28,831 bases of DNA from positions 1-28,831 of the forward strand of contig JBDREQ010000074.1 in NCBI GenBank assembly GCA_043819555.1, given 5' to 3'. This DNA is from Candidatus Zixiibacteriota bacterium (lineage in GTDB: Bacteria > Zixibacteria > MSB-5A5 > GN15 > JAAZOE01). Shown here in pieces: positions 1 to 12,000 of the stretch. Made by a program: the position numbers. Position 1 is the stretch's first letter, and every line of letters starts with the position of its first letter.

Positions 1-3000
1 GGGAACGTTAACGGAAATGCTGAAATTTGACAAAAATCTTCAGATTATTATCCTAACTGGTTACGGTTCTATCCAAAAAGGAGTTGAAGCTGTCAAAATG
101 GGGGCAGTGGATTTTTTGGAAAAGCCGGCCGATGTTGATACTCTTACGGAAATGGTTGACGATGCGGAAAAAAGAAGAATGGTTCTTTTTGAGGCCGATT
201 TGGAAAGTAAAATGTCCGATATTATGCGTAAAAAAGGCTGGTAAAAATATTTTGAATAGTTGAGGGTGAATTATCTTATTAACCTACCTGATTCAGAAAA
301 GTCCAGTAGTTCCATATCTGATATGAAATTTGAATATTCGTGCATTCAAATCGATAACTTATGATTTCCAATTTTTGCTCCACTTTGTACACAGCCAAGC
401 CGGATATGCGATATCTTCCGATGCGTAAAAAACTATGCCTAATTAGTTTCTTTTCTTTGACCCTCCTTTGGTTCTATATTAGATTCCGTGATTGTACTAC
501 TATCTTTGCGCAATAATGATAGTTTTAAAAATGGCGGAGTAACTAGAGTTGTCACAATAACCATTATCACGATCGCGGAAAACGTCCCACCTGAAATAAT
601 CGGATGACCGTCAAGAAATAATTTGGCTCCAATTCCGGCAAATATGAGTCCAACCTCTCCTCGGGGGATCATTCCCAGACCAATGGCAATACGGTTAATA
701 CGCCTGTCGAAAATGGCCAATGAACAAGCCTGTTTACCAATAATAGCGGCGACTGTCATTGTACCGGCAAAAAATAGAATATCCATCTGAACAAAGGTAT
801 CGAGCTGTACCATCATCCCCATCCTGACAAAGAAAATGGGAACTAAAAAGATGGCAATTGGCTTAATCATTTCCTCCAGAGAATCGCCAGCCCAAGCGTT
901 ATATTCAGAATAATGTACTTTTTCAAGAATCAATCCGGCCGCAAAGGCCCCCACGATAGGGGCAAGGCCGATCATGTCGGCCAAATAGGCAAAGACAAAA
1001 CAGGTCAATAATGCGATTGAGAGGAGGATGCCTTTGACTCGCATATGCGATCCGACTCGGAAGAATATCGGGGAGAGCAGATTACCAATTAAGAGCGCCC
1101 CGATTACAAATCCGACGGCTTTAATGACAATCATAAAGACGCTGCCCGAACTCAGTCCACCGCCGCCGGCTGCAGCGCCAATAATTCCGGCTACTATGGC
1201 CAAAATGACCAAACCCATAATATCATCAATAACAGCCGCCCCAAGTATAATTTTGGCTTCTTTGGTATTGCTGCGCCCTATATCTTGCAGGACTCGAGCC
1301 GTAATCCCGACAGAAGTGGCAGTCAGGGTAGCTCCGATGAAAACATGAACATAGATAGACTCTTCAGGCAAAAACCAGGCCCCTACGCCCCATCCCAGGA
1401 AAAAGGGTGCAATTACCCCAAAGCTCGCCACCATAAAAGAAACTACGCCGACTTTCATCATTTCGCCAATAGTCGATTCCAGTCCAACTTCGAAAAGAAG
1501 AATGATTACTCCTATTTCAGCCAAAATTTCAAGAGTTGCCGAGTGTTTAAATGGCTCGAAAATATCAATCCCCATTAATCCCAGATTCCCAATAATCATG
1601 CCCAGAATTAATTCGCCCAATACGGCAGGTTGCTTGAACCTCTCAAACAAATCGCCGCCGATTTTGGCCGCCAGAAGGATGATTATCAAGCCCAGCAGGA
1701 CGCTGGAAACCTCGGAAGAGCCGTGCCCTTCTTCTCCTGAAGCAAAGGAATAACTGGCCCATAAACCCGCGATTATGGTGGCAAAAATCATGAAGCGTTT
1801 ACTGGTCAATATTCGTGCCATTGTCCCTCCAGACTAATACCCAAAAAAGAATGAAAGATAGGACAATTAAAAATTTTTGACAATTAATTTCTTCCTTAAT
1901 TTGCATTGGATTAAAAGAAATCGATTCACCTGCATAATATTCAAAGCACTTGCCATTGGCTTATGTTTCCCTTAGACATTTTATTGGAAGTGTTTTTATT
2001 TGATTATTCCACCAGGAGAATGGACTGTGATATCCAACATTAGCAGGTTTGGAACGTATTTTATTATGGATCATTAATAAGGGCTTTTACATTTTAAATG
2101 ACTGAATAGCAAAGTTAAAAATATATCCAAAGGGGTTTAATATGTCTTCAAGCGTAAAAGAAATTGAGTACTACTACTCACTGGTCGCCGATAAGCCGGG
2201 TGAGGCAAGAAAACTATTGGAATTCTTGAGTGAGCGAAAAGTAAACCTACTCGCCTTGACAGCTTTTCCGGTTGGCAAGGGTCAAAGCCAGATTGATTTT
2301 ATCCCGGACAATCCGGAGATACTCAAGAATGCGGCGGATGATGCACAAATTCCATTGATTGGCCCCAAGAAAGCATTTCTTATTCAGGGCGAAGATCAAA
2401 TTGGAGCGCTATATGATTATCATCTCAAATTATCGAACGCAGGCATAAATATTCATGCGTCCAATGGCGCGGTAGACGGAACTGGTCGATTTGGATACGT
2501 CATCTGGGTTAAGCCCGCCGATTATGAAAAAGCCGCAGAGGCCTTAAAAAGCACCGACTGGAGGACAATTCAACCAAGCCCTCCCGGAGCCAAGTAATTT
2601 GGTAGTTTTAATATTCAGTCCAATCAGCTTGATGGCTTAAATAAACTCAATTTCCGGCATCAGGATTTTTATCTGGCATTCCTGCTTTTATGGCAACGAT
2701 AATTGTTTTCGCTCAGCTGCCAATCAATTCTCGAACCTTTGCCATGACCAGTTCCGGATCAATCGGCTTATCGATGAACATATCCGGCTTAACCAGTCCT
2801 TCTTCCTTCATCTCTTTTATAGCCTGGCGCATCTTTTCTCGGAGTACGTCGTAAGGTCTCTCATGGGTGTCGCCGCTTTGAGAATCGAGATCTTCCAAAA
2901 CCTCGGCGACTCCGGTCAGCATTATGATGGGTAAATCTTTAAATTCCTCTTCACGGCGGAGTTGTTTGAAAAGCACGAATCCGGTTTTTTTGGGCATCAT

Positions 3001-9000: not shown

Positions 9001-12000
9001 CTTTTTCATCTTCATTGAGAACTCCAAACGGACATTCTTCGGTGCATCGTTTGCATTGGGTGCATTTTTGCAAAAAGAAATCGGGATACGATTTATCCCC
9101 CGCGCGTGGGTGTACCGCTTCACCTCTTGAAGTCATTTCCACGCATTGGATAGCCTTTAAAGCGGCTCCGGCGGCGTCAGTTCGACTTCCCATCCCATCC
9201 ATCGGTGAGCGCACGCATCCGGCCGGATAGATTCCGGTTCGCCGGCTTTCATATGGAAAACAAATAAAATGTGAATCCGGAAATCCATATTGGAGGGCAG
9301 GAAGATCGGGTCCCTGGCGATAATTGAGATTGAGGATTTCGGTCCCCTCATGCCATTTGAGCTCTTCGATTGTTTCAGCCGCCCTCTGGCGTTGGGTTTC
9401 CGATTCGCCTTCGGTGACTTTAATTTTCGCTTCTTCAAGTTTCCGAATTGCCTCGCCGTCGGCGGAATTCGGTCTCATGCCTGCCGCCAGTACCACTAAA
9501 TCAACTTCAATCTGCATTTGGTTTTCCGGCATGGTGTTTCGGGCAGTCAAAACCAATCGGCCATTTTCGGCGAGCGTTATATCGGAAACCTCGCCTCGTG
9601 TAAAAAATACTCCCGGATCTTCCTGAACCCGGCGATAAAAGTCCTCATATTGGCCCGGGGTGCGAATGAATTCATAGAATATATACGCCTTTGTATCCTC
9701 ACGCTCCCGGAGATATAAGGCCTGCTTAAGCGTGGTCAGGCAACATATTGAGGAGCAATAAGAGTGCTGGTTCTTTTCCCGATTTCCCGAACATTGAATA
9801 AAAGCAATAGTTTTGGCGTCCTTTCCGTCAGAGGGACGGGTAATCCGCCCGGATGATTTGACCATGTCTTCCAAATCAACATTCAAAATCACATCATCCA
9901 GTTTCCCGTACGGTAAAGATTCTCTGTTATCAGCCGGATTCCATCCTGTTGCCTGAATTATAGCGCCAACCCTAAAAGACGCAATTGAATCTCCGTTTCC
10001 TTTATTAGAGGATTTTAGCTTTACATCGAATAATCCAGGCGCGCCGGAAATTTCGGCGGGCATAGTTTGAGTATAAACCTGGATATTATCGCTTCCCTCA
10101 ATCTCATCGATTGAAAAATCAATATTTGTTTCTTCCAAATCACGAAACGGAGGTTTAGTCGGGATTGATTTGTGCTGCCTGCCCAGCCAACCGCCGAGCC
10201 TATCGCTTTTTTCAACGAGATGAACTCCATAACCGGCTTTTGACATTTCGATCGCCGCCGTTATACCGGTAATACCACCGCCAACAACAAGAACGTTCTT
10301 ATCAATTTCTTCTTCAGGCAGAAACGGCTCCAGCATTTCCATTTTCTTCAATTTGGTGATATACATGCGCAGCATATCCTCGGCAAGCATCTGGGTATTT
10401 TCTTCATTCGCAGGCTGGCACCAGACGACATGCTCGCGAAGCGCCACTTTTTCAACGATGACATTTTCCGGAAACATATCGTGAGTGTAGAGGCGGGAAG
10501 ATATTCCAGCGATTAGTATTTTATTCAGATTCTTAGCCTTAATTTCTTCATTGACCACGGCCAGTTCTGTTTTTTCGCATGATTCTATCCTGCGACAAAT
10601 CGAAACCTTATATTCTTCTTCGGCCACTTTACAAAGCGCTTCGACATCCAATGCTTCGGCGATCCCGTAACCGGTGCAGATAAATACGCCAATGTTATTT
10701 TCCATAATGGCCTATTCCTTTATTGAGGCATTGAATTGCTTTCAATGCTGCCGCAGTTGAATCTTTTGTCGCCCGGGAAACATCGCACGGATGCTTGACA
10801 CAGCCGGCCGCGTAAATAGCATTGCCATTGGAGGATTCATCGAAAAATCCGTACTCATCAGTTTTTAATGCCGGGTCAATATTTATATTATTTGTATTGG
10901 GCACGATACCTGTGGACAGGACGATCATATCAAATGAAGGATGCAGATTTTCGCGAGCAATCGTGTCCTCGACATCAAGAATCAAGTTATTGGTTCCGGG
11001 TTCTTCATAAATATTCGCGACCTTGCCTTTGATGAATGAAATCCCCTTTATTTCGAGAGTCTCCTGATAAAATATCTCATGCCGCCCAATTGCCCTGATA
11101 TCAATATAAAATATCGTGACCGTTGCCTTATCATTCTTCTCCATGATATATCGTGCCTGTTTCATTGCGGCCATGCAGCACACCGCCGAACAGTAGGGGA
11201 GATGGTTGACATCTCGAGAACCGGCGCATTGGACAAAGGCGATATTTTCTGCCTTTTTGCCATCTGAGGGACGAGTGATTTTCCCTCCGGTAGGGCCGTT
11301 CTGAGAGGCCAATCGTTCCATCATGACATTAGTTATTACGTTTTCGTATTTCCCAAATCCAAGGGTATCCAAACGGGTTGCATCATAAGGCTTCCATCCG
11401 GTAGCAATGATAATTGCCGCCACTTCAATTTCAATATCCTCAGGGGTCATATTCAAATCAATGGCGCCGGGTGGACTTAATTCACCTAATTTACTGGCGT
11501 CTTCATTGGATAATGCCGCCCAATCAATGACGTATTCTTTGGGATAAGCCATGTCATGGGGAATATAGAGAGCCTTGGTTTTATCCATACCATAGTTGAA
11601 ATCATTATCCCGTTCGGAAGATATCTGATTTGAAATTGAATCATCGATTAGAGAACTAACGGTAACATAACTTGGTTTTTTTCTGAGGTGAATTTTGTAA
11701 TTTCCGGGACTGCCTGAAATTTCTTCGACAGTGGTGAGAGTATGAATGGAAATTCTGGGGTTTTGTTTTATTCTGCGGGTATTGATTTCGAAACCGCAGG
11801 TGGGTGGACACATTTTGGGAAAGTATCGATGCATACGCATTACCCGCCCGCCGAGATACGATTCCTTCTCAACGAGGATAACACGGTAACCGACTTCGGC
11901 AGCTTCCACTGCCGCCGTCATTCCCGAAATGCCGCCTCCAATTACAAGAATCGGCTTTGCGTTATTGTTCATCCCTCCCTCTTGCCTTTATATAGCTTCT

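Follow-up and report, generated by a model that had tools for sequence, protein, structure and literature searches.

An operon joining Qmo and Dsr membrane modules looks like an apparently undescribed electron-transfer complex with its own sensor

In the cryo-EM structure of DsrMKJOP, the JOP part forms a quinol-oxidising wire, with the quinol site in DsrP and a path that runs P-O-J-M-K. DsrM contacts DsrJ on the periplasmic face, and His148 of DsrO ligates one of the DsrJ haems (bioRxiv 10.64898/2026.08.25.746951). The second relevant system, QmoABC, interacts with AprAB, and sulfate-dependent growth requires it; electron transfer from menaquinol to APS faces a thermodynamic barrier (PMC3333476, in the portion available). 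The combination qmoABC-dsrJOP was not described in the literature searched, which was that outside subscription papers and the supplement of the cryo-EM preprint. In the available part of PMC10504309, a supplementary table lists a syntenic QmoC-DsrO-DsrP run in one Zixibacteria genome without comment.

Such a combination was found in the window, which is the whole 28,831-nucleotide stretch of contig JBDREQ010000074.1 from an uncultured, sulfate-respiring Candidatus Zixiibacteriota bacterium (genome G000). ORFs and family matches confirmed the eight-gene minus-strand operon of the first-pass annotation, qmoA-qmoB-qmoC-dsrJ-dsrO-dsrP-like-kinase-receiver, running from 11972 to 2713:

qmoA2, 10695..11972, minus strand: HdrA-like flavoprotein, 425 aa
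qmoB2, 8441..10705, minus strand: HdrA-like flavoprotein with 2x[4Fe-4S] and an MvhD/FlpD [2Fe-2S] domain, 754 aa
qmoC2, 7056..8411, minus strand: HdrC-like Fe-S domain and NarI-like membrane cytochrome b domain; database start at 8378 (440 aa, P0001)
dsrJ2, 6685..7059, minus strand: membrane-anchored trihaem cytochrome c, 124 aa
dsrO2, 5915..6652, minus strand: twin-arginine Fe-S protein, 245 aa
P2, 4687..5904, minus strand: DsrP-like NrfD-family membrane protein, 405 aa
histidine kinase, 3165..4640, minus strand: two TM helices, HAMP-like linker, PAS, His268, HATPase
response regulator, 2713..3165, minus strand: receiver-only, Asp54, 150 aa

The intergenic gaps are -11, 62 (29 from an upstream ATG), -4, 32, 10, 46, and -1 nt, and the reported 4-nt overlap between the qmoC stop and the dsrJ start is correct. 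As had also been claimed, the operon lacks dsrM and dsrK; neither occurs in the window, and the single dsrM of the genome lies on contig C3. All eight genes are under purifying selection, with dN/dS values of 0.04-0.12 against a same-genus relative. The gene order, reported before as identical in 6 of 6 relatives, was complete in 14 of 16 in a larger sample, and the other two loci were cut by contig ends. A pseudogene or assembly artefact was rejected on the basis of the gene order in relatives and dN/dS. The operator and promoter search used regulator consensus patterns. No shared operator was found across 18 regions upstream of qmoA2; a sigma-70-like match on the sense strand was present in nine of them and absent within 400 nt in G000. 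The promoter and terminator counts in the window were near shuffle levels.

With the NCBIfam profiles, QmoC2 (NF038018, 389 bits, cut-off 300) and DsrO2 (NF045797, 285 bits, cut-off 200) passed. DsrJ2 scored 74.5 bits with NF038038, below the cut-off of 100, compared with 170 for the main DsrJ. P2 reached 83 bits with the DsrP model NF045798, far below the cut-off of 350, and the main DsrP scored 482. The sixth gene keeps its place in the operon but encodes a divergent DsrP-like NrfD protein that fails the curated DsrP model. The operon genes are now labelled as ordinary qmoC and dsrO or as hypothetical proteins in annotations. Identities to the main copies were 48.8% for QmoA, 48.8% for QmoB, 35.9% for QmoC, 31.8% for DsrJ, 38.8% for DsrO, and 25.5% for DsrP, as first reported. 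A recent duplication of the genome's own qmo and dsr genes was rejected; every subunit grouped separately from its main copy, in a distinct clade, in trees of which one came from a quick IQ-TREE search and the rest from FastTree, all with midpoint roots only.

Compared with DsrMKJOP (Hme), the hybrid operon shares the J-O-P order after a NarI-like cytochrome b, a trihaem J with a Cys ligand, a four-cluster O with a His/Arg motif, and a ten-helix NrfD-family P with apparently matching Asp/Glu. On the other hand, QmoC and two HdrA-like flavoproteins stand in for DsrM and DsrK, J and P form separate clades under the curated cut-offs, and J2 lacks the 12-residue loop and the second Met of canonical DsrJ. 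With the QmoABC of sulfate reducers, as covered in the available portion of PMC3333476, it shares the full set of three subunits, which bear the FAD, Fe-S, MvhD, and haem His motifs, and a QmoC above the cut-off, and its early-branching relatives lie in aprBA operons. QmoA2 and QmoB2 are HdrA-like flavoproteins and QmoB2 carries the MvhD domain, as expected of QmoABC members. It differs from that system in having JOP behind it, in a His for the otherwise invariant Arg at position 362, and in being an additional copy that is not linked to aprBA and is accompanied by a kinase and a receiver. In cable bacteria, J and O/P are likewise reassorted among complexes (DsrMKJ and a DsrOhPh-tetrahaem locus), but there a tetrahaem cytochrome is used and no qmo linkage appears in the part of PMC13047784 that was available.

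QmoC proved homologous to DsrM (HHalign 94.6%). The predicted fold of QmoC2 matched HdrC with Z 13.6 and NarI with Z 10.9, rmsd 5.7 over 183 aligned residues (VIA-align; also EtfD). Foldseek returned nothing for the QmoC model at E <= 0.001, and a sequence search of solved structures returned only HdrC for QmoC and nothing for P2 or J2. The haem ligand candidates His265, His377, and His395 are kept in all QmoC groups compared. Because the second TM His that DsrM has at +10 is missing from QmoC, outer haem ligation would differ between the two proteins. In DsrM-2 the quinol site of the cytochrome itself is blocked.

Residue 362 of QmoC2, where the penultimate helix reaches the periplasmic side, is His, where canonical QmoC has Arg. 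His was found in 120/120 close homologues, and Arg in all 18 main copies and 120/120 Desulfovibrionales-type proteins. Among 80 QmoC-selected metagenome loci, 23 of 23 with His had dsrJ directly behind, 47 of 47 with Arg had no dsrJ, and the remaining 10 were cut by contig ends; Arg362 as a mark of canonical QmoC was derived in this sample and is not a published criterion. The tree needs just one change to account for both His362 and the J link, so the perfect count represents a single event rather than independent evidence. J-linked QmoC is a clade always tied to J, and His362 is a one-residue marker of it in the loci sampled. In L055, L056, L058, and L059, J-linked QmoC lies inside aprBA operons, and in L163 and L168 it sits between aprA and sat, where sister loci carry plain qmoC. 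The early-branching members are inside aprBA-qmoABC-sat clusters. The modules can part, as J is missing beside qmoC-O-P in L145 and O/P beside qmoC-J in L058, L059, and L175. No QmoC-J fusion was present among the proteins and loci compared, a search that did not take in longer forms.

J tracks its membrane-cytochrome partner rather than O/P: one clade of J (23 rows, support 99) pairs with QmoC or with a short DsrM-like protein, and with O/P of canonical type or P2 type. These observations bear on whether QmoABC and JOP could be co-transcribed yet physically separate, meeting through the quinone pool only. We consider this quite improbable: qmoC and dsrJ are translationally coupled through the 4-nt overlap, the J and QmoC clades travel together whatever the O/P type, His362 is confined to J-linked QmoC, and the known dock of DsrJ is a NarI-like cytochrome, a type represented in the operon by QmoC alone. 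A separate existence would agree with the partial operons and with the promiscuity of OP modules in this family (PMC10504309, section 8, and PMC13047784, in the parts available). Gene order, the retained cofactor ligands, the J-linked QmoC clade, and the partner-specific J clade together lend good support to the claim of a hybrid Qmo-JOP unit.

J2 has the features of DsrJ, namely an N-terminal anchor, three CxxCH motifs, and the distal Cys and His; Cys57, Met64, and His68 are invariant, with Cys57 kept in 125 rows. O2 has a twin-arginine signal and 16 Cys for four clusters, and the spacing of its His136 and Arg142 equals that of DsrO His148 and Arg154, so that His136 may correspond to the DsrJ haem ligand. 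This motif occurs in 54/54 J-linked O proteins and is lost in the sole J-less O (L145). P2 has ten long helices and a predicted ActC fold (TM 0.81), and is the most conserved subunit, at 77-93% across relatives. Its Asp113, Phe134, and Glu363 are conserved at places that, by motif and spacing, would match the DsrP quinol site of A. fulgidus, and the quinol-site residues thus appear to be kept. No molybdopterin-family subunit, as in CISM or Qrc, was seen in the operon or in 14 full relative loci.

It had been proposed that the pairing passes periplasmic electrons to Qmo. The pairing itself held; the periplasmic donor became the weaker reading, because the DsrMKJOP structure shows JOP as a quinol-oxidising wire and the matching residues appear to be kept in P2. 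In such a scheme, a multihaem cytochrome or a sulfur compound would feed J and then QmoC directly, either in addition to the quinone pool or around it, and APS reduction could become easier as a result. The retained unusual Cys ligand of J2, 16 further ORFs with three or more CxxCH motifs in G000, and the qmoC-J loci without O/P agree with it, the last resembling cable-bacterial DsrMKJ, which may need another partner (bioRxiv 10.64898/2026.08.25.746951). In DsrMKJOP, however, a change of the Cys had no effect on growth, and thiosulfate and sulfite were not donors (bioRxiv 10.64898/2026.08.25.746951). The strong conservation of P2, the absence of [NiFe] hydrogenase from 16/17 carriers, and the lack of QrcD at the family cut-off in all 17 also speak against it, and we regard this reading as doubtful.

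We lean slightly toward reading the products of the six structural genes as parts of a single membrane complex, QmoABC-JOP, which would carry electrons from quinol through P, O, J, QmoC, and QmoAB to APS reductase. Its plan would be that of DsrMKJOP, with QmoC in the place of DsrM, both being NarI-like dihaem cytochromes, and QmoAB in that of DsrK. Menaquinol would be oxidised at P2 with protons released outside, and electrons would pass over the four O2 clusters and the three J2 haems to the QmoC haems and clusters, then to the QmoA and QmoB flavins and to AprAB. The apparent P2 quinol residues, the ActC fold, the QmoC-DsrM homology, the O His/Arg motif, and the cryo-EM path of DsrMKJOP argue for this reading, while P2, at just 25% identity to DsrP and failing its model, argues against. 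The addition of JOP leaves the menaquinol-to-APS barrier in place, as it is described in the available portion of PMC3333476.

In QmoABC-JOP, two known membrane electron-transfer machines seem to be combined into a single six-part complex that comes with a sensor and has apparently not been described. It could help explain how sulfate respirers power the hardest step of sulfate respiration. It touches on what JOP contributes to DsrMK and on the way Qmo, working against the membrane potential, uses menaquinol to drive the reduction of APS. Because this naturally occurring Qmo-JOP chimera comes with paired natural controls (Arg or His QmoC at the same gene position, with or without J), both questions become testable in one complementation system. 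More tentatively, JOP may be a quinol-oxidising module that moves between complexes and uses lineage-specific J adaptors to dock on different NarI-like cytochromes (DsrM, His362 QmoC, or the short DsrM-like protein). QmoABC-JOP might then be a six-subunit donor to APS reductase, to which JOP contributes proton pumping or an entry point at low potential and so changes how APS reduction is energised, with the kinase reading the NrfD quinol site directly and tuning the complex via the receiver-only protein.

The genome holds a complete canonical Qmo/Dsr/Apr set besides the hybrid operon. The standard qmo and dsrMKJOP genes noted earlier are present, but qmo is not one unit: qmoAB lies by dsrAB on C3 and qmoC by sat-aprBA on C47. 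No apr genes occur in the window, and aprA is on C47. The DsrJ homologue had been counted in 7 of 61 genomes of the order, in two families; its range is wider, with J/C orthologues in 17/285 phylum genomes, six families, and 11/160 in the order. Canonical QmoB and QmoC are present in 17/17 carriers and AprA in 16/17, the one without being an 83% complete genome. P2 occurs in 19 genomes, all among the 101/285 phylum genomes with QmoC, and the system was seen in 0/184 without QmoC. The single-contig genome G289 has a J-linked QmoC as its sole QmoC over the cut-off. G252 and G034 have P2-kinase-receiver without J/C, but these loci are interrupted, one by an assembly gap and the other by the end of its contig. 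The link to AprAB is argued from the apr-operon members, G289, the QmoB, QmoC, and AprA of the carriers, and the occurrence of P2 only with QmoC, and QmoABC-JOP may be a condition-specific isoform alongside canonical Qmo.

In its standalone form the operon no longer lies with aprBA and occurs alongside a canonical Qmo, an arrangement that invites a new acceptor. The same six-subunit complex might have changed its job, either by reverse flow, with a cytoplasmic donor or sulfite oxidation via AprAB reducing quinone at P2, or by serving some cytoplasmic partner in place of AprAB. The standalone QmoA2 and QmoB2 each group in a separate clade (support 100) and have lost clusters that the main copies keep, namely the inserted 2x[4Fe-4S] motifs of QmoA and the N-terminal cysteine set of QmoB, but a Desulfovibrio QmoA and QmoB lack them too. 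A sensor was gained, and genes of DsrL-like, alternative complex III, and haem-copper oxidase type are present in G000; its dsrD, present by sequence inspection, points the other way. No link to oxygen respiration was seen, as the haem-copper oxidase family, in a count that also takes in NO reductases, was found in 11/17 carriers vs 57/84 other Qmo genomes. The strict co-occurrence with QmoC is a further argument against a changed job, and we regard it as unlikely.

A short outer loop separates the two TM helices of the kinase. In one planctomycete lineage (P0517/P0524) it is fused behind P2, and the fusion lacks the kinase's own TM part. P2 and the regulator occur in the same 19 genomes, and in 8/12 metagenome loci with enough flank the kinase-receiver pair is absent behind P. 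The regulator is receiver-only in 16 aligned rows, with no DNA-binding domain, and therefore cannot itself control transcription. The idea that the operon has its own two-component system is thus borne out as linkage, by the shared genomes and the P2-kinase fusion, but not as a transcription-controlling pair. Under the favoured six-subunit reading, the signal that the kinase detects within the membrane is probably the complex or its quinone site, and the kinase would act by protein contact via the receiver. The nearest model to the regulator is the DVU0259/DivK type (89 bits, cut-off 160). A function for DVU0259-type regulators beside Tmc/Hmc was not found in the literature searched. Those systems also have a receiver-only regulator and a PAS kinase beside an Hdr-related membrane complex, but their other subunits differ from those of the hybrid operon. 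TmcB/HmcF-like proteins fused to a receiver were observed in G000 (C78), L049, L118, and L145.

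The hybrid operon of the window, contig C74, consists of eight ORFs with small gaps or overlaps, in a genome of 3.35 Mb that is 97% complete. The features of the window were as follows.

439-1821, minus strand: CPA2 antiporter, with a 68% paralogue on contig C6
2142-2597, plus strand: ACT-domain protein
11972 to 2713, minus strand: hybrid operon
12599-14863, plus strand: transporter of the PiT family whose C-terminal domain is long
15275-17902: 875-aa ORF without a family, 5' of the next gene
17915-26464, plus strand: surface protein of 2849 aa carrying roughly 23 PKD repeats as well as DUF11 repeats and one OmpA-like domain
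26584-27165, plus strand: thiol peroxidase

An orthologue of the ACT-domain protein adjoins the hybrid operon in three loci (L037, L044, and L051). The 4-nt overlap of qmoC and dsrJ reported by the first-pass annotation was seen in the ORF coordinates, and the repeated comparison with the main copies gave the same identities (QmoA and QmoB 49%, QmoC 36%, DsrO 39%, DsrJ 32%, and DsrP 25%). Pfam and NCBIfam upheld its naming of QmoA, QmoB (with an MvhD domain), QmoC, and DsrO, the last two above the NCBIfam cut-off; the DsrJ-like protein was below the cut-off, and the product of the sixth gene, named dsrP, is of the NrfD type and falls well short of the cut-off for DsrP. The last two genes encode a kinase with a PAS domain and a regulator that is receiver-only. 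The dN/dS of all eight genes against a same-genus relative was 0.04-0.12. The hybrid operon is real and assembled from known modules.

The main pathway of this genome is complete, with qmoAB-dsrAB-dsrD-dsrN-dsrL-like-dsrC-dsrT-dsrMKJOP on contig C3 (dsrD, dsrN, and dsrT named by inspection and position) and qmoC adjoining sat-aprBA on C47. The main qmo genes are split, with qmoAB 5' of dsrAB (C3:115166-118702) and qmoC divergent from sat-aprBA (C47:21238-26878), a split common to most of the relatives sampled.

Close orthologues of the DsrJ-like protein (J2) were present in 17 of the 285 phylum genomes, in six families and patchily inside genera. All eight genes kept their order in 14/16 relatives, one of which has breaks in qmoA/B within a stretch of unread bases; the remaining two were cut by contig ends. 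Every J2 carrier had a second, canonical QmoB, QmoC, and DsrJ, and 16/17 had AprA. The sixth protein (P2) and the regulator shared one set of 19 genomes, every one of them included in the 101 that have QmoC; in the two genomes beyond the 17, these genes lie at assembly breaks. Since kin genomes are not independent, no P value is claimed. Beyond the phylum, the unit occurred in Acidobacteriota and Planctomycetota records, alone in loci L053 and L054 and within aprBA operons in L055, L056, L058, and L059. No description of qmoABC-dsrJOP was found by literature searches or in passages of PMC10504309, PMC10861901, PMC13047784, PMC10564751, PMC8477390, PMC3333476, and PMC10591310; one supplementary-table row of PMC10504309 gives QmoC-DsrO-DsrP as syntenic.

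According to passages of a cryo-EM preprint on DsrMKJOP (bioRxiv 10.64898/2026.08.25.746951), in which the word "Qmo" does not occur, menadiol is bound by DsrP Asp107, Phe127, and Glu359 with DsrO Arg154, and electrons pass along P-O-J-M-K. DsrO His148 ligates a haem of J, DsrM contacts DsrJ at its periplasmic side, and the DsrM quinol site is blocked when JOP is present. The DsrO-like O2 has 16 cysteines and His136/Arg142 spaced as in DsrO His148/Arg154, a mapping to A. fulgidus numbering inferred from motifs. This motif was found in 54/54 J-linked O proteins and was missing in the single J-less O. J2 retains three CxxCH, Cys57, and His68. QmoC is homologous to DsrM/NarI, so it would be a natural docking partner for J. 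As a whole the hybrid would work like DsrMKJOP without being a member of it, whereas the Qmo half can be placed in the Qmo family.

Partial operons count against a fixed unit, being qmoC-O-P without J or qmoC-J without O/P. In L145:2798-6385 (genome G286), qmoC with Arg362 is followed by O- and P-like genes and no J, and its O has lost the His and has an altered following motif. Two Acidobacteria genomes (L145:838-2439 and L146:1927-3528) have, between qmoC and aprBA, a gene for a radical SAM protein above the tetraether lipid synthase (Tes) cut-off.

Residue 362 of QmoC, where the penultimate helix ends on the outer side, was His in 120/120 close homologues, which come without gene context, and Arg in 18/18 main copies and 120/120 Desulfovibrionales-type proteins. 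Among the best 80 of 561 QmoC-picked metagenome loci, 10 of which were dropped as cut by contig ends, His362 accompanied an adjacent dsrJ in 23/23 and Arg362 its absence in 47/47. After removal of the signature columns, all 28 J-linked QmoC rows fell into one clade (support 99) with one change; His362 is therefore a marker that goes back to one event and not a case of repeated co-evolution. The QmoC of hybrid operons is specialised. Their J proteins also form their own clade, which includes the J beside a short DsrM-like gene in L143 and L144, and the accompanying O and P are canonical-type or P2-type. J tracks its membrane-cytochrome partner. This third architecture (L143:9416-11959 and L144:1005-6673, genome G288) combines the 226-aa DsrM-like cytochrome with J, O, and P, and also has DsrK-like and DsrC-like genes.

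In a QmoC tree rooted at midpoint only, the sister group of the J-linked proteins was largely apr-linked in canonical position, and the early-branching J-linked members lay in apr clusters. In the single-contig genome G289, the sole QmoC above the cut-off is J-linked. The hybrid QmoA and QmoB retain the motifs for FAD, clusters, and MvhD; the only clusters they lack are ones also missing in a Desulfovibrio Qmo. Two loci read aprA-qmoABC-J-O-P-sat-dsrCTMK (L163 and L168) where four others have aprA-qmoABC-sat (L171, L176, L181, and L198). For these reasons AprAB is the likeliest acceptor. The standalone clade, having left apr, could have changed its job. Feeding of the complex by a periplasmic donor, as the first-pass annotation proposed, is less likely: this genome does have 16 other multihaem ORFs, but a [NiFe] hydrogenase was found in just 1/17 carriers and QrcD above the cut-off in none of the 17. 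The multihaem ORFs reach 26 CxxCH motifs, and C21:40557-43293 encodes another NrfD-NrfC pair together with a cytochrome of eight haems. Passages of PMC3333476 describe an energy gap from menaquinol to APS, which the addition of JOP alone leaves unsolved.

The kinase has two TM helices, a short outer loop, a PAS domain, and a catalytic core, and the regulator is without an output domain. The kinase-receiver pair lay behind P in 4/12 metagenome loci with a flank of at least 1.5 kb and was absent in L053 and L054; the pair is therefore an add-on. Several Planctomycetota records of one lineage, 98-100% alike, encode full P2 directly fused to the PAS-kinase, whose TM part is gone; though this is one event, it ties the kinase to the subunit predicted to bind quinol. 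The fusion (P0517, P0524, and P0525) measures 767 aa; one record continues into the receiver (914 aa), possibly by a frameshift. In this genome and in relatives, TmcB/HmcF-like proteins carry a fused receiver of similar kind, which suggests that the regulator controls by protein contact. A TmcC-like membrane protein, a TmcB/HmcF-like-receiver fusion, a kinase, and a receiver are encoded at C78:49342-53759 and L049:16337-20000, and this cluster lies directly behind the hybrid operon in G149.
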